DNA from: Candidatus Dormiibacterota bacterium
GTDB taxonomy: Bacteria; Chloroflexota; Dormibacteria; Aeolococcales; Aeolococcaceae
Reading direction: 5' to 3'
Length of the DNA stretch: 64,000 nt
Assembly: GCA_963748505.1 (NCBI GenBank)
Contig: CAVVJH010000016.1
Span: 78,292 to 142,291, forward strand
Each line of letters starts with the position of its first letter. The stretch's first letter is position 1. The position numbers and the translations under genes were made by a program. The notes below the pieces were generated by a model. The model saw nothing but the letters and a program-made list of their open reading frames with translations. It had not been told where the DNA came from and ran no database searches. Shown here one piece after another: positions 13,816-51,951 of this stretch.

Positions 13816-13889
13816 TGGGCGGGCCAGGATTCGAACCTGGGACCGTGGGGTTATGAGCCCCCTGCTCTAACCGGCTGAGCTACCCGCCC
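13816..13889 (-). tRNA. tRNA-Met (anticodon CAT; elongator type by G1:C72; an Ile2/lysidine tRNA cannot be excluded)
   Basis: GGGCGGGTAGCTCAGCCGGTTAGAGCAGGGGGCTCATAACCCCACGGTCCCAGGTTCGAATCCTGGCCCGCCCA folds as a cloverleaf. CCA is not encoded. Confidence 0.9.
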
Positions 13890-17340: not shown

Positions 17341-19126
17341 CTACGGGGTCGGGGTGAAGACCGGCGGCGGATGGGCCGCACAGCCGTCGCACGCGGCCGA
17401 CCACCAGAGGCTCCCGCCGGCGCCCTGCCAGAAGGCGGCAACCGCCGTGCCATACCAGTTCACGGCCGACAGATTGGTTGCGGCCGCCACCTGGTTCAAC
17501 GATTGCGGGCCGACCCAGCCGTTGCCGGGGTTGTAGATGGCCGCGGCAAGACTGCCGCTCGGGCGCTGCATGACCACCGTCAATGCGCTGGTCGCCGACC
17601 CTGCGGCAGCCGGGCGCCCCATGCTCACCGACGAATCGACCTCGACCTGGTTGGGGCCGCCGTTCTCGGTGACACCGGCAGCCCAGACCGAGCCCGTCTG
17701 GGTGCGCCACACGGCGTCGACGGTTGCTGGCCCTGCAGCGACCACAGTGGGATCGCTGGCGAGCCCGCCCTGGCCAACCTCGTGCGCCCCGAACCACATG
17801 TTCGATGCACCCAGCTCAGTCCAGAGATTGCCTGCGCTGTCGCGCCAGACGACACCGATGGTGCCGTTGGAGGTGGCTACAGCATCCGGGTTGCCGGTGA
17901 CCGGGCCCGAGTTCAGCGGCATTGGGGCGGACCACGTGCCGCTGTAGGCGGCGGCCCACAGCGTCCCGTCGCGCGCCTTCCAGATCAATTCGATGTCACC
18001 CGGCGCCTGGCTGATCGCGGCTGGCGCTGAGCCGGCGGCGACCGCTCCCACCTGGATCTCCTGCGGCGCGAGCCAGGTCTCCGCACCGAAGAATCCACTC
18101 TGCGACTGGGCCTGCCAGATATCACCCGAGCTGTCGGCCCAGAAGGCGTCGATCTGTCCGGCCACCGGCGACACCGTCGTCGGGTCGGAGGCGACATTCG
18201 CCACCGGTGTGATGACCGCGGCGGCACCCGCCTGCCAACTCTCGTTGCGATAGGCGAGGTCGTAGAGCCTGGAATCGCTGCCGCGCCACACGACGTCCAT
18301 GTCGCCTGGCTGATCGGAGACGCTCTTCGGCGTCCCGGTGACGCCCGCCGCGGCGAGTTCGGCCGGAGCCTGCTCAGTCTCACGCAGCCATCCGATGAGC
18401 GGCGTATAGCCGTTGGCGGTCACACGTGATCCGTTCATGGGGAAGCGATCCGTCCCGGAGGATGTGGCGTTCTGCTCAACGATGTCGACGTAGCCCGGCC
18501 CGACATCGCGGACCACCGCGACGTGACCGGAGCCATCCCAGTAGCTCCCCAGCCAGCCCGGGCCGAAGATCATCAGGTCGCCCTGCATGGGGACGACGCC
18601 GCCACCATTGGGGAACTGTTCCAGTGGGATCGGCAGGTTCGGACCCACGCCCCACATGGTGCTGGCGCCGCCCCCGTGCCAGATCGCCGGCTCACCCCAC
18701 GCGTAGTACGCGTAGCGCTGCGCCAGCTCGCTGCACTGGAATTCGGGGCCAAACCTGCAGCCGTTGGGGGTGCCGCAGCCGACGTCGTTGAACGAGGATC
18801 CGTTGCCGTACGCGGTGAGGTTCGAGCAGTTGGTCACCCAGGTTGCCCAGGCGCATCCGCTGATGAGCGGGGCGCCATAGTTCCCGGTCCCGGCGACAAG
18901 CGCCTGCAACATTCCGTGGGTCACGGTCGGCGCCGCCGGGCGCCGGGGCGTGGGCCACTGCCGGAGCGCCCTTGGTCAAGGCCACCACGGCGCCGATGCC
19001 CTGCGCAGCCGGAACCGCGGAAAGCGCTCTGCTGGGGGCCGCAGCGCCGGCGCTCACCAAAGGAGCGACGCTCGCGGATCCAGCGAGCAGCGCGGCAAGC
19101 GCCAGTCGATGGAGGGACGAATGCAT
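17341..19126 (-). CDS. Secreted CHAP-domain amidase fused to a ~7-blade beta-propeller (tectonin/PLL-lectin-like repeats); frame break near 18930-18960
   Basis: Signal peptide MHSSLHRLALAALLAGSASVA (fragment 18692..19126). CHAP motifs CSELAQRYAYYAWGE...GHVAVVRDV. Seven repeats of the type (V/I)xxxW(R/K)xxxGxLW. Confidence 0.7.
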
Positions 19127-19228
19127 GCGAGCCCAGCCTGCCAGACGTCATCTGACGTTGCCGTCACATGGTCGAAACGATCGAGTTCGCCTGCCCATGA
19201 CGGCGCCAGCCGCCACGAGGCGGAATTC

Positions 19229-22200
19229 CTACTGGAACCAGCCCTCGATATCGATGACCGCGTTGATGGTCCCGGCCGCGTTGAAGAGGTCCACGTCGAC
19301 CGGCATTCCCGCTCGGCGCGAGCTGCACGACCACGAGGTTGGGCAGCACCTGTCCCGGAATCACGTTGACGTCCGAGGCGTTCGGATGCTTGGCGAGGTT
19401 GGCAGGGTAGAGGGCGAGGAAGGTCGGGGCTGTGGGCGCGATGGCCGTGAGGTTGGCGATGACCGCGACCGCGGTACCGGCACCGCCGGCCGCGGGAATG
19501 CCCGCCAGGCCGGCCACCACCACCAGATCAACGCCTCCGGTTCCGAGCGCATGACCCGCGCAGGGCAGCCCCGAGCCAGTCCGGGTGTCGCAGATTCGCG
19601 TGGGGGCGATGCCCTGGTACTGCGACCCGGGAGCCGCTGCGCCGCGCCCGAACCACCCACCAGCGTCGAGGAGGACGTTGATGGCGCCCGCCGCGTTGTA
19701 GACGCAGAGCGACGTCAGCGGGCCTCCCGTGGTCGCCGGACCGAGCGCGACCATCACCCGGTTCGCCTCCACGGCACCGGCGGCAAGGTTGAGCGTTGAG
19801 AAGGGCGGCGCGTGGGTCCCCGTGTAGGTGCACTGGCCGCTCGCGTTGGTGGGGAACAGGCTCAGATAGGTCGGGGCGGTGCCCGCGACACCGGTCAGGT
19901 TGACGACGACCGCTTCGGCGGTCCCATCACTCGGGAACCGCGCCGGCACCGGTACCGGAGACGTTGACCACCATGGCTCCCCCGGCGCCCAATGCCCCGT
20001 GCGCGCTGCACGCCGGGGTTGGCGACTCTGGCCGCGTGTCGCAGACGCGCACCGGCGCGATGGGATGGAATTCGCCGACGATGTCGCTCGACGCCTGCGG
20101 CGCGAAATATCCTTCGACGTCGGCGATGACGTTCGACCGTCCCCGCGGCGTTGTAGATATTGACCGCACCCCCCTGCCCATGGTCACGGTCACCAGGTTG
20201 GGAATGACCTTCCCCGGCGGGAAGTTGAGGTTGGAGGCATTCGGCCTTGGCGTCCCGAACGGATAGACCGTGAGCAGGCTGCCCGCAGTGCCGGCGACCT
20301 CGGTCACGTTCAGGACCACCGCGGTCGCCGTGGTCGGGATCGGATCCGGCCCGCCCGCGAGTCCGGTGACCCCGGTGAGCTGCAACTTCCGGATGGTGCC
20401 CGCCGACAGCGGGTGCCCGGTGCACTGCATGCAGGTGCTGCCCGCCCGCGTGTCGAGAATTCGGAATGGACTGAGCGGCGCGTAGTTCGCGAGCCCGACG
20501 TAGAGGTATCCCGAACCGACGGTCACCGGGCTGCGTGCCGATCCCGTCGGTCACCTGCGCCTGGACCAGGCCGGACGTCGATGACGACGGGGTCGTGAAG
20601 GTGAACGAGTTCGGGAGTCAGCGATCCGCCAGTGATGGGCGCTAGCGGGCCCCCGCGAACGTCAGCCGTCGAGCCGACCGCGAAGTCAGAGCCGGAAACG
20701 GTCACCAGCGTCCCACCCGTCGCCGGGCCTTCCGCGGGCGTCAGCGACGTATCGATGGTCCGGCAAAGGTGTATCGACCCACGAACGTGTTCCAGCAGGT
20801 GTTTGCATTTGCGCAACCGGGCCGGTGTTGCCGTCCGTGTCCTCGAAGACCACCCAGACGTCGGTGGGATGCAGTGCATCCTGCACCGCTGTCGAGTAGT
20901 CGCCCCACGGCAGGCGTGCAGCGGCGGGGCTGTAGAAGGTCGAGCTGACGTCCACCGTGATGAAAGCTGCCCCAGACATTACCGGCAGTGATTGGCGCGA
21001 CCATGATCGATTCGAAGGCAGTGCTCGAGAACTCGTCAAAGGTGAGGATCGCGTTGCCCGAGCTGTCCAAGGCGAGTGACGGATAGAAGAGGTACGCGCC
21101 GTTGACGCCTTCGGCCGGCGAGCTGCGTGATGCCGGTCACGGCCCGCCGTGCTCGCCGCAACGTCAATGACGTTGAGGCAGGAACGGGCGTGGCTGTCGC
21201 CACTCGGCGTGCAGCTCGTGTCGCCGGCGATCCAGAGCGCATTGCTGTGCCATACGGTGCTGAGGAATCGATCGTCGCCGGTCGTTGAGCTTGGCAGCCG
21301 TGCCCTGCTGCGACGCGTCAGGTGGCGACGCTCGTCGCCGTTGTGGTTTCCGGGGTGCAGGTATGCGAGACGTTCTCTGGCGTCGGGTGTCCCCGTGATG
21401 GCGAAGACCGCAATGCTGCCCGACATGGTTGCCGAACACGTGGCGTTGTTCGCGACTTCGTACTCGACGGTCGACGCCCCCGGCGCCATTGCGGGCTGCA
21501 GTCCCAGCGGACCTGGAACCAGGAAGGCGCTGCTGTTCGCTGTCAGGGTTCCATTGGTGAGGTCCGCGCGCTGAATGATCACCGTCTGGCTCGCGACGAA
21601 GGCTCCCGCCGTGCCACTGACACAGGTCTGATAGTCGCTCGACTCGACGATGACATTTGCTGTCAGGCCGAGCGCGACCGTGCCGAGCTCCACTCCCCCA
21701 CCGAGCTCGGAGTTGATGTTCACCGTGCCCCGCGATGTCCATGCGAGCGCAGGGTTGGACTGCGAGACCATGACCGCAACCTGAGTCCCGCATGACGACG
21801 CGTTGTACTGCAGCACCATCAGGATGAACAGCCCCGAGACGGGGTCGAACACGACATGCGGATTGCGCACGTTCCACCCTGACGGATTCCTGATCATCGT
21901 GTTGATGTTCATTGCGGCGAGCGGCGTCCCAGCGCGGTTGTAGATCTCCAGCGCGCTGTTGACCGCTTCCACGACATTGTTCGCGCCGGCCGCGATGCTC
22001 GGATCCGCTGGCGTCGTCACCGCGGCATTTCCGGAACCGGCAGCCGCGATTGCCGCCTGTTCACTCATCCCGTTGAAGCTTTCGAGCTGCAAGGGGGCAG
22101 GCGGCGTCAACGGCGTCGCATCGAGCGCTGCGTGCTGCGATGCCGGCATCAACGGGCGCGCGGCAGCAATCGATGATGCAGATGTCAGCAGTGACAGCGC

Positions 22201-22275
22201 CAGTGCGAATGCTGCGGCGAATGTGAGGGAACGACGCACGTGCACCAGTCTAGAAGCGAATCGAGCCAGTGACAC
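19229..22275 (-). pseudogene. Paralog A of the secreted propeller-head protein with IPT/TIG and three PxRxCDTR...GWF repeats; at least 7 frame breaks as sequenced
   Basis: Signal peptide LTFAAAFALALSLLTSASS. The head aligns with 62342..63982 (DRFLSTVWHSNALWIAGDTSCTP vs DDRFLNAVWENGKIWTADGTSCQP; PWGDYST vs RWGDYSG). IPT is GPATGGTLVTVSGSDF. Repeats are FRILDTR, VRVCDTR and TRICDTR. The restored end is LFNAAGTINAVIDIEGWFQ-stop at 19229. Confidence 0.7.
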
Positions 22276-29931: not shown

Positions 29932-31994
29932 TCAGTAGAAGAGGTGGTGGATCGCGATCGTCGGGATGGCGAGGATCGCGATGATGTTCATCACCTTGAT
30001 CATGGGGTTGATCGCGGGGCCGGCGGTGTCCTTGCTGGGATCGCCCACCGTGTCGCCGGTGACGGCTGCGGCGTGCGCGTCCGACCCCTTGCCCCCGAAG
30101 TTGCCTTCCTCGATGTATTTCTTGGCGTTGTCCCACGCACCGCCGCCGGTGGTCATCTGCAACGCGACGAACACGCCGACCACGATGGTGCCGAGCAGCA
30201 TCGCGCCAAGGGCCTGCGCACCCAGAATGAACCCGACGGCCAAGGGGGCGAGGACGGGGAGCAGACCCGGCAGGATCATCTCCCGTTGCGCGGCGGCGGT
30301 CACCAGCGCGACGCACTTCCCGTATTCCGGCTTGGCGGTGCCCTCCATGATCCCGGGGATCTCGCGGAACTGGCGGCGCACCTCGGTCACGACTCCGCCC
30401 GCCGCGCGACCCACCGCGAGCATGGCGAGCGATCCGAAGAGGAACGGCATGATGCCGCCGAGCAGGAGCCCCGCAATGACCGGCGGGGCGGTGAGGTCGA
30501 ACGTCGCCTTGGGCAAACCATTGGCGAGCAATGTGTTGTTGAGGATGTCCGTGTAGCTCGCGAAGAGCACCAGGGCTGCGAGGGCGGCGGAGCCGATCGC
30601 GTACCCCTTGGTGACGGCCTTGGTGGTGTTGCCGACCGCGTCGAGTGCGTCGGTCACGGTGCGCACCGACTCGGGAAGATTGGCCATCTCCGCGATGCCA
30701 CCGGCGTTGTCGGTAATCGGTCCGTAGGAGTTGATCGCGACCACGATGCCGGTCATGCTGAGCAGCGCCATCGCCGCGATGCCGATGCCGTAGATGCCAC
30801 CCAGCGATGCCGAGGCCAGGATGCCGACGGCGATGATGAGCACCGGTATCGCCGTCCCTTCCATGCCGATCGCGAGCCCCGCGATGATGTTGGTCGCATG
30901 TCCGGTCTGCGACGCGCGGGCGATGGTGCGCACCGGCCAGAACTGCGAGCCGGTGAAGAACTCCGTGACCGCCACGATGAGTACCGTAATGACGATGCCG
31001 ATCACGGCGCACCAGAAGAGATTGAACACCGGGTGATCGAAATGGTTGAGATAGCCGCCGTTGTTCAGCAGCACCGTGATCAGCAGGAATCCCGCGAGCG
31101 CGACGACTCTGACACGAGGAGGCCGCGATAAAGCGCGCCCATGATCCAGGTGCCACGACCCATGCGCACGAAGAACGTGCCGATGATCGAGGCCACGATG
31201 CTGACCGCACCAAGCATCAGCGGATAGAAGACGAACACGAGATCCGGATGGCCGCCGGGTTTGTAGAGCAGGCTGCCCAGCAACATGGTGGCGACCGCAG
31301 TGACCGCGTAGGTCTCGAAGAGGTCCGCAGCCATGCCCGCGCAGTCGCCGACGTTGTCGCCGACGTTGTCGGCGATGACCGCCGGGTTGCGCGGGTCATC
31401 CTCCGGGATGCCGGCCTCCAGCTTGCCGACCAGGTCGGCCCCGACGTCCGCCGCCTTGGTGTAGATGCCACCGCCGAGGCGCGCGAACACCGAGATGAGC
31501 GACGCTCCGAAGGCAAAGCCCACCAGCGCGTTGAAATCCTGGAACACGCCGTAGGCAAGCGCCACGCCGATCAGCCCGAAACCCACCACGAAGAAACCGG
31601 TCACCGCACCGCCCTTGAAGGCGAGCTGCAGGGCCGGGTTGACGCCGTTGCGGGCAGCCTCGGCGGTGCGCAGGTTCGAGCGCACCGAGATGTTCATGCC
31701 GACGTAGCCGGCGGCCCCGCTGAGCACCGCTCCGATCAGGAAGAGGACACCCGTCTTCCACCCGAGCGAGAAGGTGAGGAACAAAAAGATCACCGCCCCG
31801 ATGCCGGAGATGATCAGGTACTGGCGGTTGAGGTACGCCTGCGCGCCTTCCTGGATCGCCTTGGCGATCTCCTTCATGGTGTCGTTGCCTTCGGGTTTGC
31901 GAAGGACCCAGAAGATCAGATAGACGGCGAACAGGAGAGCGAGCAGTCCGGCTGCCGCGATGGGGAGCAGGACTGCGCGGTCAAGGGTCGGCAT
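29932..31994 (-). CDS. hppA: Membrane-bound pyrophosphate-energised proton pump; frame break near 31110
   Basis: Fragments 31080..31994 ([40 protein letters not shown]) and 29932..31074 ([34 protein letters not shown]). The join [24 protein letters not shown] needs one extra base. Composite length is 3n-1. Confidence 0.9.
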
Positions 31995-34477: not shown

Positions 34478-35311
34478 TCAGTAGACGAAGAGGTCGATGC
34501 CTCCTGCAACCGTGAGCACCTGTCCCGTGATGTAGCGCGCTTCGGGTGAGACCAGGAACACGATGGCGCTGGCGATATCGTCCGGCTCACCCGCACTGCG
34601 CATCGCGGTGCGGAGCACCATGCGGTCGTTCATGCGCACATCGCCCATCTTCCACGCCTCAGTGCCGATGATGCCCGGCGCGATGATGTTCGCGGTGATG
34701 CCGAAACGTGCACCCTCGAGTGCCATCGACTTGCCGAGACCGATCAGCGACGCCTTGGTCGCCGCATACGACGCCTGACCGAATCCGCCCAACGTCCCCG
34801 CAACCGATGCCATGTAGATGACGCGCCCCCAACCCTGTTCGCGCATGTACGGCCACGCCGCTTTCGTGCAGTTGAACGCACCCGAAAGGTTCACGCGCAA
34901 GTCTCGATCCCACAGCTCATCGCTCTGATGCTCAATCTGCGCGACGTGGTCCAGCGTGCCCGCGTTGTTCACCAGGATATCGATGGACCCGAAGTCCTTC
35001 TTGATGGTCGCAAACACTTCCTTGATCTGCTCGCGGTTGGTCACGTCCATCTTCATCGCCGCGGACCGCCGGCCCATCTTCCGAATCTCTTCGCTCGTCT
35101 GTTCCGAATAGACGACGTGCTGCGACGTGAACAGTTGCGCGAGCGCCGAATGCGCTGCCTCAGCAGTTTGTTCGAGAGCCGGGTCCGACTCGATGAGGAT
35201 GTCGGTGACAACGACGTCGGCGCCGGCCCGAGCAAGCGCGAGGCAATCGGCTCTGCCGAGTCCACGCGATCCTCCGGTGACAACGGCGACCTTCCCGGTC
35301 AGATCGAACAT
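34478..35311 (-). CDS. Short-chain dehydrogenase/reductase (FabG-like)
   Basis: VAVVTGGSRGLGRA, NNAG, and the catalytic YAATKAS. Confidence 0.85.
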   Translation of the reverse strand: MFDLTGKVAVVTGGSRGLGRADCLALARAGADVVVTDILIESDPALEQTAEAAHSALAQLFTSQHVVYSEQTSEEIRKMGRRSAAMKMDVTNREQIKEVFATIKKDFGSIDILVNNAGTLDHVAQIEHQSDELWDRDLRVNLSGAFNCTKAAWPYMREQGWGRVIYMASVAGTLGGFGQASYAATKASLIGLGKSMALEGARFGITANIIAPGIIGTEAWKMGDVRMNDRMVLRTAMRSAGEPDDIASAIVFLVSPEARYITGQVLTVAGGIDLFVY

Positions 35312-35442
35312 ACAACGCTCCTCGACAGACGGCTCATGCGATCCAAGAGCTTAGCGCTCGCTCCGCGACGCGGTACGCGCGGGCGGCCCAGCCGGGCGAT
35401 CAAGGCGACGGGCGGCCAGCCGCTCAGCGTGCAGGCGCCGAA

Positions 35443-35573
35443 CTGAGAGACACAGCGCCGGGCAAGGCGGAACCGGCCGGCCAGTGCACGATCGGGCGGA
35501 GAGCCACAACGACTGGGCAAGGCGGGACGAGCGGTAGTTCATGTGGCGGGCTGAGAGCCACAACGACTGCCAA
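35443..35573 (-). repeat. Tandem ~55-bp repeats (about 2.5 units) duplicating the outer flank and arm start of the hairpin element
   Basis: GAGAGACACAGCGCCGGGCAAGGCGGAAC / GAGAGCCACAACGACTGGGCAAGGCGGGAC / GAGAGCCACAACGACTGCCAAGGCGGGAC. Confidence 0.7.
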
Positions 35574-35694
35574 GGCGGGACGGGGCGGGCGGGGGCTCGG
35601 CGCATTGGGGAGCGAGCGAGAGAGCGCGATAATTTATTTGCGCGAACGAGCGAGCGACACGCTAAGCAAGAGACCCCGCCCACCCCGTCCCGCC
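35574..35694 (-). repeat. Hairpin element copy A (25-nt arms, ~70-nt conserved core); candidate structured 3'-UTR RNA or terminator module
   Basis: Arms GGCGGGACGGGGCGGGCGGGGGCTC / GAGACCCCGCCCACCCCGTCCCGCC. The core is shared with copies B-D. It lies 100 nt downstream of the ACAD stop. Confidence 0.8.
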
Positions 35695-35793
35695 CGACCA
35701 CAGGCGAACCCAGGAAGACCTCTCAGCCGAGCGCGGCTGCGCGACCCGCGCAGCGCCACGAAGGGCGGCCAGCAGGCGAGCTGGCCGAAGGTC

Positions 35794-37035
35794 TCAGCTC
35801 GCAGCCGCGATGCGCTCCGTCGGGACCTCCGCAACGACCTGCGGACGAGCACCCGTCGCGGTCCGCTCACCGAGGATGTAGCGACTGATGACCAGGCGCT
35901 GGATCTCCGCGGTTCCTTCCCAGATCTGATAGATCTTGGCGTCGCGCATGAAGCGCTCGACGGGATATTCCTTGATGTATCCGTAGCCACCGAGGATCTG
36001 CACGGCGTCGACCGTCACGCGCATCGCCATGTCGCCGGCGAACAACTTGGCCATCGAGCCCTCTCCGCGGGCCATCGGGATGCGGTTCATCGCCATCCAT
36101 CCGGCGCGCCAGATGAGCAGCCGTGCGGCGTCGATCTCGGTCGCCATGTCGGCGAGCTTGAAGGCGATCGCCTCGTGTTGTGAGATCGGCTTGCCGAACG
36201 CGACCCGCTGCTTCGAGTAGTCGCGTGCGAACTCGAAGGCCGCGCGGGCGATGCCGAGCGCGCCGGCGCCGACCATCGGTCGGGTGGCCTCGAGCATGAT
36301 CATCGCGCCAACGCTTCCGGGGCCGGTCAGGTTGCCGCTGTTGTCGTAGCCGAGGCGCTGATCGTCGGGGACGAAACAGTCCTCGAAGATCACCTGTGCG
36401 GTGTGCGACGCGCGGACGCCGAGCTTGCGCTCCTTGCGGCCCTGGCGCATGCCGGTCGTGCCCTTCTCGATGACGAAACCCGCCACTCCGGCAGACCCCT
36501 GGGACTTGTCGGTGGTGGCGAACGCAACCTGAACGTCAGCAATCCCGCCGTTGGTGCAGAACTGCTTCGTGCCGTTGAGGACGTAGCCGCCGTCGACCTT
36601 CGTCGCCGTTGTCTCCAGCGCCATCGAATCGGAGCCGCTGTTGGGCTCGGTGAGCCCCATGGCACCGATCTTCAATTCGGGGCCGCAGAGCATCGAGATG
36701 TACTTCTCTTTCTGCTCCTCGGTTCCCATCGCGGTGATGGCGGCACCGGCGAGGCCGGTCGCCCCGATCGAGGTCGCGATGCCGGCATCGCCCCAGGAAA
36801 GCTCCTCTTCGCGGATCAGGTTGGTGATCAGGTCGATGCCGCCGCCGCCGTACTGCTCGGGAAAGCTCGCGGTGGCGTCGAGCCCCAGCGCGTGCGCCTT
36901 GCGCATGACGTCCCAGGGGGTTTCCTCGGCCTCGTCGTAGCGCTCCGCAACCGGGCGCATCTCCTTCTCGGCGAACTCGTGAGCAAGGCCGCGGATTTCC
37001 TCTTGTTCGCGGGTGAGCGAGAAGTCGATTCCCAT
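35794..37035 (-). CDS. Acyl-CoA dehydrogenase
   Basis: GAMGLTEPNSGSDS...QILGGYGYIKEYPVERFMRDAKIYQIWEGTAEIQ. Confidence 0.9.
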   Translation of the reverse strand: MGIDFSLTREQEEIRGLAHEFAEKEMRPVAERYDEAEETPWDVMRKAHALGLDATASFPEQYGGGGIDLITNLIREEELSWGDAGIATSIGATGLAGAAITAMGTEEQKEKYISMLCGPELKIGAMGLTEPNSGSDSMALETTATKVDGGYVLNGTKQFCTNGGIADVQVAFATTDKSQGSAGVAGFVIEKGTTGMRQGRKERKLGVRASHTAQVIFEDCFVPDDQRLGYDNSGNLTGPGSVGAMIMLEATRPMVGAGALGIARAAFEFARDYSKQRVAFGKPISQHEAIAFKLADMATEIDAARLLIWRAGWMAMNRIPMARGEGSMAKLFAGDMAMRVTVDAVQILGGYGYIKEYPVERFMRDAKIYQIWEGTAEIQRLVISRYILGERTATGARPQVVAEVPTERIAAAS

Positions 37036-39024: not shown

Positions 39025-39954
39025 ATGACCCCGGATTCGTCCGTATCACTGCACACGTGCATGGGAGCAGCGATCGCGACCCACGTTCATCGATTTGTAC
39101 GGCATCTCTGGGTGCTCGCGGTAGCGGCGGTCCTGATTGTGCTCGTGGCACGACCCGCTCAGGTCCCGGCCGCTCCGCTGCTTCGCAACCTCGCCGCGAT
39201 CCAGATCAACGCCGTCGTGGAGAATTCGGCGACGGTCACCGCGATCGCCGTCAAGCCGATCAAGACGGTCGTCCTGCAGCCGGGTCAGACGCTGGCCACC
39301 CTGGCCACGCAATACAAGGTGCCGGTATCGGCGATCCAGTGGGGCAACCAGCTGACAGCCGCGGTCGTGCCCAAGGCCGGCTCAACCTTGCTGATTCCAC
39401 CGGGGCAGGGCGCACTCGTTGCGGTCCTCCCTGCTGAGACGCCCACCGCATTCGCGGCGCGCATGCACCTCGACCCTGCCGTGGTCCTCGACTACAACAA
39501 CCTGAGCAGCAACGGGCCGATGCTCGGCGGCTCCTACCTGCAGGTGCCGCTGTCGCGCGCGCCGGCCGGATCGCTCATCGGCTCGTACTTCGTTGACGCG
39601 CAGAACGGCGTGCCGTCGGTCCCGGTGCAGACCCCGCTCCACGACGGCTTCCCCTACGGCCAGTGCACGTACTACGTGGCAACGCGGCGCGCAGTCAACT
39701 GGGGCGGCAATGCCGTCGAGTGGTGGTGGAGCGCACGCGGTCACCGCCCCGAAGGACATGTTCCCGTGCAAGGGGCGATCGTCGTCTTCAACATCGGATG
39801 GGTCGGTCACGTCGCCTACGTTGAGCACGTGAACCAGGACGGAACCTTCCTTGTGTCCGAGATGAACTATCACGCGGGCGGGGGAGGATGGGGACGCGTC
39901 GACTACCGAACCATTGATGACAACGATGCTTCCATCCTCGGGTTTGTCTACTGA
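39025..39954 (+). CDS. Membrane-anchored LysM (x2) plus CHAP peptidoglycan hydrolase
   Basis: TM helix HLWVLAVAAVLIVLV. LysM VVLQPGQTLATLATQYKVPVSAIQWGN. CHAP FPYGQCTYYVA...GHVAYVEHV. Confidence 0.8.
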   Translation: MTPDSSVSLHTCMGAAIATHVHRFVRHLWVLAVAAVLIVLVARPAQVPAAPLLRNLAAIQINAVVENSATVTAIAVKPIKTVVLQPGQTLATLATQYKVPVSAIQWGNQLTAAVVPKAGSTLLIPPGQGALVAVLPAETPTAFAARMHLDPAVVLDYNNLSSNGPMLGGSYLQVPLSRAPAGSLIGSYFVDAQNGVPSVPVQTPLHDGFPYGQCTYYVATRRAVNWGGNAVEWWWSARGHRPEGHVPVQGAIVVFNIGWVGHVAYVEHVNQDGTFLVSEMNYHAGGGGWGRVDYRTIDDNDASILGFVY

Positions 39955-39978
39955 GGGCCTTTATGGCGTCGGTGGTGG

Positions 39979-40097
39979 GGCGGGACGGGGTTCTCGGGGC
40001 TCTTGCTTAGCGGGTCGCTCGCTCGTTCGCGCAAGTAAATTATCGCGCTCTCTCGCTCGCTCCCCAATGCGCCGAGCACCGAGAACCCCGTCCCGCC
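39979..40097 (+). repeat. Hairpin element copy B
   Basis: Arms GGCGGGACGGGGTTCTCGGGGCT / GAGCACCGAGAACCCCGTCCCGCC. Core GTCGCTCGCTCGTTCGCGCAAGTAAATTATCGCGCTCTCTCGCTCGCTCCCCAATGCGCC. It starts 25 nt after the LysM-CHAP stop. Confidence 0.8.
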
Positions 40098-40231
40098 TTA
40101 CGGCCGTTGTGCCGGTTACGTCTGTTGACGTTCCTCTCGGTCTCACTGCTCGAAACTGGTTCGCTAGTGGCTGATGGGCCGGTGACAGAACTGGACAGCG
40201 GGCTCAGCAGCAAAGAGAACACGCAGGCTCG

Positions 40232-40888
40232 ATGGCGATTCGGACGACCATGACCAACGATGCCGAAGCGCTCGACTTGTTGATGCGCGCAGTCATCGTT
40301 GGGGACGCGCCGACGGCATCACGGCTGATCGCCGCGTCGCCGGCAATCGTTCGCGGACATGTGGAACGAGGTGCCACGCGCCAGGAGGCGACCGAGCATT
40401 TCCACAACGAAATCGGTCACTACATCTATGCCGGCGATACTGCACTGCATGCCGCCGCGGCCGGATACCGCGTTACGCTGGTGCAGGTGTTGGTCGCCGC
40501 CGGAGCGGACGTCGGCGCGAAGAATCGGCGGGGTGCTGAACCACTGCACTATGCCGCCGACGGTCAACCGGGCTCACCAACCTGGCGACCTGATGACCAG
40601 GCGGCAACCATCACCATCCTGATCGCTGCCGGCGCGGATCCCAACGCCACTGACAAGAGCGGCGTCGCGCCCCTGCACCGCGCTGTGCGCTGCCGCTGCG
40701 GCGCGGCTGTCGAGGCGTTGCTCGCAGGGGGAGCCGACGCGCGACAGCTGAACGGAAATGGCTCCACGCCCCTGGACCTGGCAACCAGAACTACCGGCAG
40801 AGGCGGATCAGGGAGTGCGGACTCAAAGGTTCAGCAAGCGTTGATCGTCCGTCTCCTGGAGGCCCACGGTACCCAACCCAAAGGCTGA
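40232..40888 (+). CDS. Ankyrin-repeat protein
   Basis: GDTALHAAAAGYRVTLVQVLVAAGADVGAKNRRGAEPLHYAA, and GADPNATDKSGVAPLHRAV...GADARQLNGNGSTPLDLA. Confidence 0.8.
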   Translation: MAIRTTMTNDAEALDLLMRAVIVGDAPTASRLIAASPAIVRGHVERGATRQEATEHFHNEIGHYIYAGDTALHAAAAGYRVTLVQVLVAAGADVGAKNRRGAEPLHYAADGQPGSPTWRPDDQAATITILIAAGADPNATDKSGVAPLHRAVRCRCGAAVEALLAGGADARQLNGNGSTPLDLATRTTGRGGSGSADSKVQQALIVRLLEAHGTQPKG

Positions 40889-40890
40889 GG

Positions 40891-41403
40891 CTACGACCGC
40901 TCAGATGTCATGAGGTCGACGTAGGCGACATCGATGCGGGCAGCGTCGACCAGATGGAGCAATCCCACTACGTCGCTGTGCTCCTCCTCTGCCTCACTGT
41001 CGCTGATGTCATCCGCAACCGTCTCCAGCTCAACGAAGCGACCAAGCTCCGCAACCTCGTCGAGGTGGATGCGGGTGTGTCGCAGCAGCAACAGATGGCG
41101 TCGCTTCTCCACACTCCCCGCTCTGCCGAGCGCCCGACCGAGAATGTCGTCAACTGACGATGCGTTGGCCGTGCGATAGATCGAGTAATCAGAAACCCGA
41201 GCGTGAGCAACATCCGCGCGGTCATAGGCAATCAACTCGCCACGCCCATCGCCGAACGTCCTCAGTTTCAGCCGCCCGTGCGGGACGACGTAGAACTGAT
41301 CACGCTGCTGCAGCAAGCCCTCGTCGAGCGCACCTGCGTCAACGGCTCGACGCACCACGGCCTCGTGATCCGCGTACCGAAACTTGCTTTCGAGATTCCG
41401 CAC
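40891..41403 (-). CDS. CYTH-domain protein (class IV adenylyl cyclase / triphosphate tunnel metalloenzyme family)
   Basis: N-terminal NLESKF (NxExK where ExExK is expected), RLKLRTFGDGRGELIAY, RHTRIHLDEVAELGRFVELE. Confidence 0.65.
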   Translation of the reverse strand: MRNLESKFRYADHEAVVRRAVDAGALDEGLLQQRDQFYVVPHGRLKLRTFGDGRGELIAYDRADVAHARVSDYSIYRTANASSVDDILGRALGRAGSVEKRRHLLLLRHTRIHLDEVAELGRFVELETVADDISDSEAEEEHSDVVGLLHLVDAARIDVAYVDLMTSERS

Positions 41404-41555
41404 GCCGCGATCCTACGGGGAGTCATCGCAGCAAGGCGAGACGGCGTCCGCGAGGAGACAACCCTCAGCAAGGGAAAGGGCACAACATCTGCAGTCGCAA
41501 GATGGCGTCAGTGGCAAGGACAGCTCAGCGAAGGCCTACGGCACAACGGCTGTAG

Positions 41556-41676
41556 GGCGGGAAGGGACGGTCAGCCACGTGGCGCATTGGGGAGCGAGCG
41601 AGAGAGCGCGACAATGTGCTTGCGCGAACGAGCGAGCGACCCGCTAAGCAAACGCGGCTGACCGTCCCTTCCCGCC
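41556..41676 (-). repeat. Hairpin element copy C
   Basis: Arms GGCGGGAAGGGACGGTCAGCCACGT / ACGCGGCTGACCGTCCCTTCCCGCC. The core is identical apart from the AT island (ACAATGTGCTT). It lies 30 nt downstream of the response-regulator stop. Confidence 0.8.
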
Positions 41677-41705
41677 GCACCACAGAGCGAAGAGACCGCG
41701 AAGCG

Positions 41706-42404
41706 TCAACCTGAAAAGCGGTACCCAATCCCCGGAACCGAGTGGATGTAGGTCGGCTTCTCCGCGTCCGGCTCGATCTTGCGACGGAGCCGGTAGACGT
41801 GCGCGTCGACGGTGCGAGTCTCGATCTCGACTTCGTAGCCCCAGACGCGACGGAGCAACTCTCCGCGGCTCATGACCTGACCCGGCCGCGAGGCGAGCAA
41901 TGCCAGAAGGTTGAACTCGGTCAGCGTCAGCATGACCTCTTCACCATCGCGGAACACCTGGCGGCGTCCGAGGTCGATGGTCAGTCCTGGGAACTCGAAG
42001 CGGTCGCGAGGCTGCTCCTGTGCGGAGATCTCGCTACGACGCAGGTGGGCGCCGATGCGCGCCATGAGCTCGCGGACTTCGAAGGGCTTGGTCACGTAGT
42101 CATCAGCACCCAGCTCGAGACCGACCACCACGTCGATGGTGTCGCTCTTCGCCGTCAGCATGATGATCGGGACCCGAGCGCCTTCTGCCCGGAGACGCCG
42201 GCAGACATCAAGACCGCTCATGCCAGGCAGGTTGACGTCGAGGATGATCAGATCGGGATTCTGCTCGCGGGCGAGGTTCAAACCCTCGACACCGGTTGCG
42301 GCTTCGATCAGCGTGTGGTTCTGCGCGCTGACGGCCAGGCGCACCACTTCTCGACTCGGGGGATCGTCCTCGACGATCAGGATGGTCTTCCCGGCTCCGC
42401 TCAT
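41706..42404 (-). CDS. OmpR/PhoB-family response regulator
   Basis: ILIVEDDPP...DLIILDVNLPGMSG...LTAK, plus a winged-helix C-terminus YIHSVPGIGYRF. ATG 42404 overlaps the kinase stop. Confidence 0.85.
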   Translation of the reverse strand: MSGAGKTILIVEDDPPSREVVRLAVSAQNHTLIEAATGVEGLNLAREQNPDLIILDVNLPGMSGLDVCRRLRAEGARVPIIMLTAKSDTIDVVVGLELGADDYVTKPFEVRELMARIGAHLRRSEISAQEQPRDRFEFPGLTIDLGRRQVFRDGEEVMLTLTEFNLLALLASRPGQVMSRGELLRRVWGYEVEIETRTVDAHVYRLRRKIEPDAEKPTYIHSVPGIGYRFSG

Positions 42405-49189: not shown

Positions 49190-49666
49190 ATGCCCAAGAG
49201 TTATTCCAGCGCTGACCAGGTCATCGATCCGGCCAAGCGCTATACAGCGACCATCGCGACCGACCGCGGCGACATCGTGATCGCCCTTGACCCCAAGCGG
49301 GCGCCGAAATCGGTCAACAACTTCGTGTTCCTCGCCCGCGACGGCTTCTACGACGGCCTCACCTTCCATCGCGTCGTCGATGATTTCGTGATCCAGGGCG
49401 GATGCCCGGAAGGGACCGGCCGCGGGGGTCCCGGTTACAAGTTCGAGGACGAGCCCGTCCAGGGCGAGTACCAGCCCGGCGCCGTCGCCATGGCGAATTC
49501 GGGACCGAACACCAACGGATCGCAGTTCTTCATCTGCACGGTCGACGATCGCCAGAAGCTGACCAAGGCCTACAACCTGTTCGGTCAGGTCACCAAGGGC
49601 ATGGACGTCGTCACCTCGATTCGCAAGGACGATGTGATGAAGTCGGTCACCATCACCGAGGAGTGA
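49190..49666 (+). CDS. ppiA: Cyclophilin-type peptidyl-prolyl cis-trans isomerase
   Basis: FHRVVDDFVIQGGCP.GTGRGGPGY.F.DE...GAVAMANSGPNTNGSQFFI. Confidence 0.9.
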   Translation: MPKSYSSADQVIDPAKRYTATIATDRGDIVIALDPKRAPKSVNNFVFLARDGFYDGLTFHRVVDDFVIQGGCPEGTGRGGPGYKFEDEPVQGEYQPGAVAMANSGPNTNGSQFFICTVDDRQKLTKAYNLFGQVTKGMDVVTSIRKDDVMKSVTITEE

Positions 49667-50533
49667 TGGCGGACTCCCAACTTCGTCTGATGGCAGTGCA
49701 TGCGCACTGCGACGACGAGACCATCACGATGGGCGGCACGCTCGCCACATACGCCGACCGCGGCGTGAAAACCTGCGTCGTGTGCTGCACCGACGGGAAG
49801 CTGGCGACCATCGTCGACCCGGACATGCCCGAAGAGACGACCCGCCCGCACCTGCGCGAGATTCGCGAGGCCGAGTTGCGCGAGGCGTGCCGGATTCTCA
49901 AGGTCGATGACGTCGAGTTCCTGCGCTACGGCGACTCGGGAATGGCCGGCGCCGACACCAACCAGCTCCCCGACGCCTTCTGGATGGCTTCCATGGATGA
50001 GGCGGTCGGCAAGGTCGTCGCCCAGATCCGTCGCTTCCGTCCCCACGTTGTAGTCACCTATGACGGTAACGGCGGATACGGTCACCCGGACCACATCCAG
50101 ACCCACCGCGCGACGGTGCTCGCGGTCGAGGCGGCGCATCTCCTGCCGATGTACAAGGATGCCGGAGCCCCCTGGAGAGTTCGAAAAGCTCTACTACACG
50201 GCCTTTCCCAAGGCCGAGTTCGTACGTATGGTCGAGATGGCCAAGGCAGCGGGGTTGGAGCCGCCATTCGGCGAGGAGGATCCCGAGAACATGGAATTCC
50301 TCACGCCCGACGAATACGTGACCACGAGCGTCGACACCGTGTCGGTGATCGACCGCAAACGCGAGGCGTTACGCGCACACAAGAGTCAGATCTCGGCGGA
50401 CTGGCCGCAATTGACGATGCCTGACGAGGCGCTCAAGGCGTTCGCCAACGAGCACTATCAACTCGTGATGTCGCGCACACCGGCCGTGCTGCCGGAGACG
50501 GATCTCTTCGCAGGGGTTACTTCGAAGTCGTAG
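49666..50533 (+). CDS. PIG-L family deacetylase (MshB/Mca-like, mycothiol-associated); frame break near 50160
   Basis: LMAVHAHCDDETITMGGTL...GYGHPDHIQTH. The C-terminal half is in ORF 50060..50533. Composite length is 3n+1. Confidence 0.75.
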
Positions 50534-50570
50534 CCGGGCCCTTCTCGTTCGCTCCGTTCCGCATGCAGCG

Positions 50571-50693
50571 GCAGGGGGGATGGCGCCACGGGCTCTCTTG
50601 CTCAGCTGTTCGCTCGCTCGTTCGCGCAAGCCAAGTATCGCACTCTCTCGCTCGCTCTCAATTCGCAGAGAGCCCGTGTCACCACCCCCCTGC
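50571..50693 (+). repeat. Hairpin element copy D (most divergent)
   Basis: Arms GCAGGGGGGATGGCGCCACGGGCTCT / GAGAGCCCGTGTCACCACCCCCCTGC. Core GTTCGCTCGCTCGTTCGCGCAAGCCAAGTATCGCACTCTCTCGCTCGCTCTCAATTCGCA. It lies between convergent genes. Confidence 0.75.
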
Positions 50694-50778
50694 TGCTTTC
50701 TTGTTCGCGCTCACTCGGGGCCGTCTCTGCCTCGCTCCGTTGGGCCAGGTGTCCTGGCGCGTTGTCGACCTTCGTGAG

Positions 50779-51951
50779 CTAGCTGCGCTCCAGCACCATT
50801 GCGATGCCCTGGCCGCCGCCGATGCAGAGTGCGGCGACGCCGAGATGCGAGTTGCGTTTCTGCATCTCGTAGAGAAGCGTCACGAGGATTCGCGTGCCGC
50901 TCGCACCGATGGGGTGGCCGATCGCGATTGCTCCACCGTTGACGTTGAGACGGTCTTCGGGGACGGCGAGTTCGCGGCCGACGGCAACCGCTTGCGCGGC
51001 GAAGGCTTCGTTCAGCTCGAAGAGGTCGATGTCGCGGAGGCCGAGACCGGCTTTCTGAAGCGCGGAGCGCACCGCAGGCACGGGGCCCATTCCCATGATT
51101 CGGGGCGCGACACCTGCGCTCGAATAGGCTCGGATGCGCGCGAGCGGCGTGCGCTGCTCGGCCTTCGCCCGCGAGGCGCTCATGACCACGACCGCGGCTG
51201 CGCCATCGTTGATGCCGCTCGCGTTACCGGCAGTGACGGAGCCGTCCTTTGCAAAGGCGGCTCGCAGCGCCGCAAGCGACTCGGCTGTTATGCCGGGGCG
51301 GGGATGCTCGTCGGTGTCGATGAGAACGGTTTCCTTCTTGCGCTGCACGGGCACGGCGATGATCTCGTCGGTGAAACGGCCGCTCTGCATTGCAGCTTCG
51401 GCTTTCTGCTGCGAAGCGGCGGCGAATGCGTCCTGGTCCTCGCGGCTGACCTCGTACTCGCGCGCGATGTTCTCGGCGGTGGTGCCCATGTGACAGTCGT
51501 CGAATGCGCACCAGAGCCCGTCGCGAATCATCTCGTCGACCAGTTGCCCGTGGCCGAGTCGGTAGCCGTAGCGCCCGTTCTCCATCAGGTACGGCGCTCG
51601 CGACATGTTCTCCATGCCACCGGCAACGAGACACTCGGCGTCACCGGCACGGATTGCCTGCGCGGCGAGTGCGACTGTCTTGAGACCGCTGCCGCAGACC
51701 TTGTTGATGGTGGTCGACGGGACGCTCTCAGCGAGCCCAGCGCCGATTGCGGACTGACGCGCGGGGTTCTGGCCGAGACCTGCCTGGAGCACGTTGCCCA
51801 TCAGGACTTCATCGACCGTGTCGATACCTGCGCGGCGCAGCGCTTCTTCCACGGCGATCGATCCAAGTCGGGTCGCCGGAACATCGGTGAACACACCACC
51901 GAACGTTCCCACGGCAGTGCGCGCGGCACTGACGATGACCGCATCTTCCAT
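50779..51951 (-). CDS. Acetyl-CoA C-acetyltransferase (thiolase II)
   Basis: [15 protein letters not shown] (ATG 51951), active-site NKVCGSGLK, and the C-terminal [15 protein letters not shown] and CIGGGQG. Confidence 0.9.

Follow-up and report, generated by a model that had tools for sequence, protein, structure and literature searches.

Why should several neighbouring genes of one bacterium each be followed, shortly after the stop codon, by a copy of the same long hairpin? The question is raised by a 64,000-nt stretch of DNA from a Candidatus Dormiibacterota bacterium (contig CAVVJH010000016.1, positions 78,292 to 142,291; hereafter the window), in which a preliminary description made from the sequence alone had pointed out four copies of a repeat with a conserved core between self-complementary arms. 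The element family is an undescribed, lineage-restricted, low-copy palindromic repeat. Its copies keep a fixed position and orientation at gene ends, their arms pair and covary, their core is conserved above the synonymous rate, and they are gained and lost between lineages. We tentatively read the element as a gene-end module that would act on the 3' ends of transcripts.

Results

Four copies of one hairpin in the window

The window copies are labelled c1 to c4. Patterns for the core halves match at 35600-35669 (+), 40003-40072 (-), 41582-41651 (+) and 50598-50657 (-) and nowhere else in the window, with no match in 100 dinucleotide-preserving shuffles, which confirms the four copies first listed. 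Their arms are complementary over 25 nt at 92%, 33 nt at 85%, 25 nt at 96% and 24 nt at 88%, and are the top-ranking inverted repeats with separated arms in the 64-kb window. The RNA fold of each copy is calculated at -68 to -86 kcal/mol (z = -5.8 to -8.7). The hairpin measures ~130 bp, or ~160 bp with its conserved flanks, at a GC content of 65-70%. We describe its parts as read from the upstream gene and call the opposite strand the purine strand. In this order the stop codon is followed by 13-37 nt ending in ...GTGGTG, a G-rich arm (~25 nt), the core, a C-rich arm, a short spacer and CGTTGTGCC. The preliminary description had called for a covariance model. Built from 17 aligned copies, this model (R1) finds exactly c1-c4 in the window, all within 15 kb and none in the other 49 kb, and over 420 kb of related loci it adds no copies to those found by nhmmer.

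Copy c1 spans 35544-35712 (+ in the purine-core orientation; covariance-model match 35569-35700, 132 bits), with CACAACGACTG in the far-side flank (35559-35569), the left arm at 35574-35598, the core at 35600-35669, the right arm at 35670-35694 and the gene-side flank reaching to 35712. It stands 99 nt downstream of the stop codon of an ACAD gene (35794-37035, -) and upstream of an SDR gene (34478-35311, -). The hairpin of c2 (39967-40128, - in the purine-core orientation; match 39973-40102, 133 bits; arms 39979-40002 and 40074-40097, core 40003-40072) starts 24 nt past the stop codon of a LysM-CHAP gene (39025-39954, +), upstream of an ankyrin-repeat gene (40232-40888, +). That of c3 (41525-41706, +; match 41551-41682, 134 bits; arms 41556-41580 and 41652-41676, core 41582-41651) ends, in coordinate order, 29 nt before the stop codon of an MtrA-like response-regulator (RR) gene (41706-42404, -), upstream of a CYTH gene (40891-41403, -). 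The most diverged window copy, c4 (50556-50714, -; match 105 bits; arms 50575-50598 and 50667-50690, with one bulge), lies between the convergent genes for PIG-L (+, C-terminal frame ending at 50533) and thiolase (-, stop codon at 50779), its gene-side end toward PIG-L and 37 nt from it. These neighbours were named by Pfam. All four copies are intergenic and follow stop codons, as had been described; the PIG-L end at 50533 holds only across a frameshift.

A family confined to one neighbourhood of one clade

A strict core pattern matched 2 genomes of 185,579 species representatives, both Candidatus Dormiibacterota metagenome-assembled genomes (MAGs), with 2 copies per whole MAG, on one contig and always in this neighbourhood. 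A looser core pattern yielded two further soil-metagenome contigs, from which loci L004 and L006 come; the metagenome matches L005 and L007 were ruled out as GA/GAGC microsatellites. Apart from these microsatellites, JBEPVD010000023.1, DAITPY010000021.1 and the contigs of L004 and L006 are the only public genome or metagenome contigs that either pattern matched. Orthologous loci were gathered through the flanking RR and LysM-CHAP proteins, and the copies of L008, L024, L032 and L033 were detected only through flanking-gene look-ups and nhmmer. The total is 19 copies in nine related contigs, 18 of them full and one cut by a contig end, in the window, L001-L004, L006, L008, L024, L032 and L033. 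All named element-bearing records are Candidatus Dormibacterota, of one clade, and carry 2-4 copies per genome confined to one neighbourhood of ~15 kb.

The repeat is real and, as first thought, unassigned. Rfam 15 at the gathering threshold matches only a tRNA in the window (13816-13889). At E values up to 10, the sole match on an element is mir-615 on c2, at chance level (23 bits against a gathering threshold of 90), and an Xoo2 match (17 against 45) falls inside the CYTH gene at 41042-41111. No element was found by blastn against plasmids and phages or by a pattern scan of the viral contigs of IMG/VR. A full-text literature search combining Dormibacterota with palindromic and inverted-repeat terms returned nothing relevant, and an exact-protein look-up of the ACAD protein gave no match on record.

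Position and orientation at gene ends

All 19 copies lie at the 3' end of a gene, with enrichment between convergent genes. The same end (...GTGGTG plus arm) faces the stop codon in 19 of 19, in agreement with the fixed orientation proposed earlier from the window alone, and the distance from stop codon to hairpin departs from the 13-37 nt given above only in c1, whose L024 orthologue stands at about 20 nt. Where the RR and CHAP genes converge, as they do in the window, L003, L004, L006, L008 and L032, each has a copy of its own; the two copies are inverted, with their gene-side ends pointing outward, and in L004 they are only ~60 nt apart. The thiolase/PIG-L site of L001 holds one full and one half copy in the same paired arrangement, the full copy being flipped relative to c4, yet toward the nearer stop codon.

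No canonical U-tract terminator was found at gene ends in a 20-kb region, where the terminator pattern matched 3 times, against 8.2 expected, always inside open reading frames (ORFs). The gene-side motif AGTCRCTTCGC was considered as a target for insertion throughout the genome; the window shows no enrichment of it (4 matches against 4.3 expected).

Arms that diverge in step

Over the aligned copies the arms are complementary at 93% of positions (391/420). The best partner of a left arm is the right arm of the same copy or of an orthologue (scores of 17-26, against a median of 8-12 with other copies), the exception being L024_ACAD, which scores 19 with its own arm and 21 with that of its orthologue c1. 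In the alignment made with the model, pairing holds in 92% of cells (79% in shuffles), and double changes are seen in 14 of the 30 modelled pairs; none of 500 shuffles reaches any observed measure. When the partner was slid by 1-3 columns, pairing fell to 30-48%. The claim that each arm pairs with its own partner and that the arms covary is thus upheld, with L024_ACAD as the sole exception. Arm divergence runs roughly at the synonymous rate, but both arms change in step; c3 and L002 differ by four changes in total, including a compensated A:T to C:G.

The arms had also been called copy-specific. This is true of the inner 13 nt, which differ between loci, and not of the outer 12 nt, which read GGCGGGA(C/A)GGG in c1-c3 alike. 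The outer 8-12 nt are semi-conserved within a clade (GGCGGGAC.. in the window clade, GGCGAGA(C/G)GGG.. in the L003/L004/L006 clade), so that describing the arms as the opposite of the ends of MITEs (miniature inverted-repeat transposable elements) was an overstatement. Outside the arms the flanks are conserved, on the gene side as on the far side.

Two other ideas about the hairpin were rejected. A G-quadruplex in the G-rich arm would need four G-runs, found only in c1. Insertion of the core into a pre-existing terminator hairpin does not fit the conservation of the flanks outside the arms, nor orthologues in which both arms change in step.

A conserved quasi-palindromic core

The core measures 68-69 nt; read from the upstream gene it is 64% pyrimidine, with more C than G. 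Described at first as not palindromic, it proves to be a quasi-palindrome with covariation. Its halves lie antiparallel in an irregular helix of G-C pairs between tandem G·A (5'-CGAG-3' over 5'-CGAG-3'), closed by an apex with a 6-bp stem and an 8-nt loop. At position (39,93) six copies have G-C, ten have T-A and one has T·G; the pair (49,82) flips from C-G to G-C in L032, (48,83) flips in L008, and two copies have C-G in place of an A·G pair. In L032, a more remote lineage, the cores have diverged to roughly 70-83% identity (by eye) and keep the helix. Of the central AT-rich 11-mer, which had been said to drift, only the last 4 nt vary, the YAAT of this loop or AT island being kept in 16 of 17 copies (TACT in c4). 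The two direct tracts reported in the core, GAGCGAGCGA, are indeed present, 34 bp apart.

The core blocks GGAGCGAGCGAGAGAGCGCGA and TGCGCGAACGAGCGAGCGAC are identical in 12/17 and 15/17 aligned copies, respectively; L004a and L006b are one base off the first block (GAGAG to GAGCG). The RR proteins of element-bearing genomes are 97-99% identical, and the third-codon identity of the RR genes is 0.79 within clades (window/L002, L004/L006) and 0.60 between them, which is near saturation at a third-position GC content of about 0.8. Since the core blocks are much more conserved than synonymous sites, the comparison indicates that resident copies are under purifying selection.

A conserved micro-ORF in the core was discarded because reading frames differ between copies. 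A Rho-loading (rut-like) site would agree with the excess of C over G and with 13 YC dimers, but G makes up 21% and a further hairpin family of sister lineages (family C, below) has no skew; we dropped it as a separate reading and keep it as a possible form of the explanation favoured below.

Gain, loss and exchange between lineages

Copy c1, with the nest of partial repeats around it, occurs only in the window and L024, the site being an empty spacer of 58-107 nt in L003 and L008. The RR/CHAP and thiolase/PIG-L sites are both empty in L013, L019, L021 and L025, where the stop codons are only 15-85 nt apart; the thiolase/PIG-L spacer of L021 has 14 nt. Separate loci within a genome have loop and core variants in common (in L024, the orthologue of c1 has a c3-type loop), which suggests gene conversion among copies.

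The nest at c1 holds three tandem partial copies of ~54 bp of the far-side flank and arm start (35429-35480, 35493-35528 and 35547-35588, +; span 35429-35573), the last of which runs into c1, and an inverted remnant of a partner copy (35348-35363, -), namely the right end of a core (GAGCGAGCG..CTAAGC) with a 5-nt deletion, identical in L024. Both the tandem copies and the inverted core scrap had been noticed before; we find both kept in the closest relative, L024, and the nest absent from L003 and L008. The layout mirrors that of the paired loci, with a truncated inverted partner and then c1. Because the left junction joins this truncated inverted copy to native sequence at a 5-nt microhomology (GCTTA), it looks like an illegitimate or template-switch duplication, not transposition.

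Other variation at the same sites

The DNA between the RR-side and CHAP-side copies differs from genome to genome. It encodes ankyrin-repeat and CYTH proteins in the window (40232-41403), a 145-aa putative lipoprotein in L003 (474-911), a 70-aa ORF in L006 (4522-4734) and a quinone-oxidoreductase-like gene in L008 (10800-11900), and measures ~60 nt in L004; a length of 310 nt also occurs. This spacer is a hot spot of gene content, and it varies in element-free lineages too. In L004 (4199-4589), compared with L003 (155-1098) and L006 (4289-4934), the element subtypes X (GGCGAGACGGGGGACACGG..) and Y (GGCGAGAGGGAGGGACAGGGG.., core GAGCGAGCGAGCGAG) stand on swapped sides, and it looks as if the whole inverted pair had been flipped.

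Other hairpins occupy these sites in sister lineages. In L009 (RR 89% identical) a different hairpin of ~140 nt stands after the RR and CHAP stop codons (10935-11075 and 11240-11375) as an inverted pair, with G-rich copy-specific arms, an unrelated core of ~85 nt, an apical stem that differs between the two yet stays paired, and DNA folds at z = -8 to -10. A third family, family C (core ACGCCGGCAATCGCTTCGCGATCGACTCGG...), follows RR or 4HBT stop codons in L011 (10745-10880), L012, L015-L018 and L020. Among strains with identical RR protein some have it and others do not, and the spacer measures 15 to 403 nt; L017, with CCGTCCGTCC, resembles an empty site, and L016 has the element between CCGGCCGGCC and CCGTCCGTCC. 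Family C and the family studied here have a common gene-side motif, AGTCGCTTCGC. L012 also carries a palindromic insertion of ~175 bp (1108-1285; arms GGGAGACCCCCGCCGATGCGCC / GGCGCATCGG...CGGGGGTCTCC) between two ETF genes that are 2 nt apart in L011. In the element-free L025 the 85-nt CHAP-RR spacer (10829-10912) has a 13-bp hairpin (GTGGTAGGGCGCC...GGCGCGGCACCAC) flanked by GTGGT/ACCAC as at the elements, which could be the ancestral state or a deletion product.

In the window, a degenerate core-like stretch, GGAGCGAGGCAGAGA...GAGTGAGCGCGAAC, lies with the far-side-flank-like GACAACGCGCC between c4 and the thiolase stop codon (50694-50779, -); it was seen by eye only and is detected by neither nhmmer nor the covariance model. 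In the gene for the PIG-L/LmbE-type deacetylase (49666-50533) a frameshift near 50171-50256 interrupts the coding sequence (frames +1 and +2), as by an assembly error or in a pseudogene. The H+-pyrophosphatase gene (29932-31994) is likewise in two frames, broken at about 31107-31113; its counterpart in L024, at 98% identity, is intact (687 aa). That the two splits occur together suggests indel errors in the assembly. Elsewhere in the window, four successive minus-strand ORFs (17341-22275; 527, 261, 199 and 529 aa) have no Pfam match.

Discussion

A gene-end module

What could such a hairpin do? We tentatively favour a locally duplicating gene-end hairpin module that would act on transcript 3' ends, with the core as a sequence-specific site for a putative partner. 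New copies would arise by local duplication, and established ones would be kept by selection as an orientation-specific module. The element would be co-transcribed as the start of the 3' untranslated region (UTR) of the upstream gene, where the G-rich 5' arm and the C-rich 3' arm would close a clamp of ~25 bp. This clamp may block 3' exonucleases, stop or insulate read-through, or both, so that each gene of a convergent pair would need its own copy, and it would present the conserved core to a protein or RNA partner. Fixed position and orientation, one copy per convergent gene, the lack of canonical terminators in the region, core conservation and low local copy number, taken together, suggest a selected gene-end module and not a typical dispersed MITE.

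Several observations weigh against this reading. The stem is not followed by the immediate U-tract of an intrinsic terminator: the downstream sequence (..CGTTGTGCCGTT..) has no T-run, and a terminator scan misses the elements, which speaks against the terminator module first put forward. Independent sites that are informative on orientation number only about 5-6. In the core, the conserved G·T pairs (60,71) and (38,94) and four tandem G·A blocks stabilise the purine strand, and since this strand is antisense to the upstream gene, folding of the core on it conflicts with a simple 3'-UTR reading. The 29 arm mismatches divide into 6 that wobble on the purine-core strand, 5 that wobble on the other strand and 18 that do neither, as expected at random. 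RNA-specific selection on the arms, one way to read the selection on a long closing helix that the preliminary description had proposed, is therefore not supported by the types of mismatch. As these show no G·U bias, the pairing may be kept on DNA rather than RNA; quasipalindrome-templated correction is a DNA mechanism able to keep arms complementary. Sister lineages whose RR proteins are 83-89% identical have no element at these sites, and since L013, L019, L021 and L025 do without it, the module is dispensable. Lastly, a plain clamp leaves a fixed ~60 nt of core sequence unexplained.

Alternative explanations

A selfish element without host function is a rather unlikely explanation. It would be non-autonomous and MITE- or foldback-like, mobilised in trans or copied by replication slippage or template switching, and tolerated at gene ends, where an insertion does little harm, its arms held complementary by the needs of a mobilising enzyme or by palindrome-templated repair. 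As is typical of MITEs, copies are present or absent between lineages (c1 with its nest, or the thiolase/PIG-L spacer of 14 nt in L021). There are partial, nested and tandem fragments, the outer ends of the arms show semi-conservation in the manner of terminal inverted repeats, and loop and core variants look exchanged within a genome. Hairpin families with other cores take the same sites in sister lineages, family C being polymorphic at identical RR, and enrichment between convergent genes is known as well for the SPRITE, RUP and BOX repeats, where it has been interpreted as tolerance of a parasite (PMC3049150). However, no target-site duplication abuts the arms, the direct-repeat-like flanking motifs GTGGTG / GTTGTGCC being the same at all loci, and the left junction of c1 is a microhomology join rather than a transposase-type end. 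MITEs come in many dispersed copies, whereas a whole MAG holds only 2 strict-core copies in one neighbourhood, and no transposase was found among the 40 window ORFs scanned. Moreover, orthologous sites with identical core blocks across near-saturated synonymous divergence would require selection on the resident copies.

Distinctly unlikely, in our estimation, is a further reading in which a dedicated factor recognises the core and the clamp helix that carries it evolves freely. The elements could then be a new kind of gene-end signal that depends on this factor, such as a portable site where termination or 3'-end maturation machinery is loaded or processing takes place, in a phylum that would lack U-tract terminators; or they could be paired recombination sites bounding the RR-CHAP gene-exchange hot spot. 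If so, the sister-lineage hairpin families, with the same architecture and other cores, would be interchangeable versions of one device.

The core also contains a promoter-like motif, TTG-N16/17-GAYAAT, on the purine strand, and a portable outward promoter firing at the adjacent stop codon would yield an antisense RNA starting with the right core block, the arms serving as terminator or insulator for the sense transcript. In c1 the motif reads TTGGGG (35605-35610), a 17-nt spacer and GATAAT (35628-35633, +), toward the ACAD stop codon. TTG and GA.A.T, with the A2, A4 and T6 of the second hexamer, are found in 17/17 aligned copies at a spacing of 16-17 nt, even in the diverged c4 (GATACT) and in L032, and a promoter scan flags the c4 site (50661-50634). 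Correia elements are known to create promoters (PMC3049150, PMC3184786), and the motif always points toward the 3' end of the upstream gene, as the orientation rule would demand. We nevertheless give this reading little credence: conservation is as high throughout the 17-nt spacer and in the left block as in the hexamers, beyond the needs of a promoter, and the core covaries by pairing of its left and right blocks, which is impossible for an RNA starting past the -10 hexamer. Besides, a single match in ~70 conserved nt would not be surprising by chance alone.

Equally improbable is a site that works as DNA, such as a protein-bound cruciform, a direct-repeat site formed by the two GAGCGAGCGA tracts, or a recombination site, with inverted pairs bounding an invertible or gene-exchanging segment. 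The DNA-like arm mismatches without wobble bias, the 34-bp spacing of the tracts, the different DNA between RR-side and CHAP-side copies in every genome, and the X and Y types that are swapped in L004 as if the pair had inverted would all fit. But the RR-CHAP spacer varies in element-free lineages as well, so that the hot spot need not depend on the element; the window ORFs that were scanned yielded no recombinase or integrase, and the single copies c4 and c1 have no intact partners. Integron attC sites have complementary R''/R' end boxes (RYYYAAC / GTTRRRY), a variable centre and a nearby integron integrase. We rejected this class, as the flanks of the element (CACAACG / CCACCAC) are not complementary, its centre is conserved and no integrase occurs among the scanned ORFs.

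Very improbable, finally, is an independently transcribed structured RNA of the purine strand, which would form a rod-like hairpin that has tandem G·A and is conserved in its apical domain: this strand equals or exceeds the other in folding energy (-77.7 against -68.2 kcal/mol for c4, -86.2 against -81.6 for c3) and shows conserved G·U pairs, the A·G to C-G change in two copies and the G-C/C-G covariation of L032 and L008, but outside the hairpin there is neither a conserved promoter nor a terminator after it, several copies in one neighbourhood are each tied to the stop codon of another gene, no Rfam family matches, and the arms lack wobble bias. A replication-terminus (Ter) trap or parS-like cluster was discarded, for although cumulative GC skew peaks near 32-38 kb, its amplitude is small, gene orientation does not fit and the copies alternate rather than forming two opposed groups.

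Relation to known intergenic repeats

REP, BIME and REPIN elements are GC-rich extragenic palindromes, biased to convergent gene ends, that stabilise the upstream mRNA; REPINs are long hairpins made from inverted doublets. REPs are palindromes of ~35 nt (~20-40 nt for the class), RAYT-linked and present in hundreds per genome, and REPINs combine conserved arms with a variable centre. The element shows the reverse, with variable arms and a conserved centre in a hairpin of ~130 nt and 2-4 copies.

SPRITE, a low-copy interspersed repeat of ~105 bp, is AT-rich; a long U-rich tract comes after its 18-bp stem, and its 30 copies are dispersed (PMC3049150). Terminator-like and enriched at convergent 3' ends, it would be functionally the closest to our element, which differs in its GC content of 65-70%, its lack of a U-tract, its variable clamp of ~25 bp with a 70-nt helical core and its 2-4 copies in one neighbourhood. 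The bcr1 repeats of the Bacillus cereus group and the ERIC/IRU repeats of enterobacteria are imperfect palindromes of ~125-155 bp in transcribed intergenic DNA, with compensatory changes and a strain distribution that is not conserved (PMC3184786). They resemble the element as long co-transcribed palindromes with compensatory changes, co-transcription being known for them and proposed for the element. Both are dispersed in many copies, whereas the element is conserved in its centre and variable in its closing helix; no sequence similarity was found, and the 5-bp direct repeats that flank bcr1 have no counterpart at the element. Correia elements of Neisseria (CREE/NEMIS) are hairpins of ~100-155 bp with long inverted repeats, co-transcribed, processed by RNase III and able to act as terminator or outward promoter (PMC3049150, PMC3184786). 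Unlike the element, with its copy-specific inner arms and no target-site duplication, they have conserved 26-bp terminal inverted repeats, a TA duplication and hundreds of dispersed copies. The element thus belongs to the known class of intergenic hairpin repeats and is not a new category; within this class it is distinct because of its reversed conservation pattern, its G·A-rich helical core and its local, low-copy distribution.

Significance

Dormibacterota are abundant, uncultured soil bacteria. The element is a sequence-defined handle both on how their transcripts end and on their small mobile DNA. Should a factor bind the core, a new gene-end signal would thereby be defined. Should the element be no more than a selfish palindrome, it would still be a clean natural case of arms that stay complementary while diverging at a near-neutral rate, without the G·U signature of RNA selection, and this arm pattern would then bear on how covariation is read as evidence for RNA structure.

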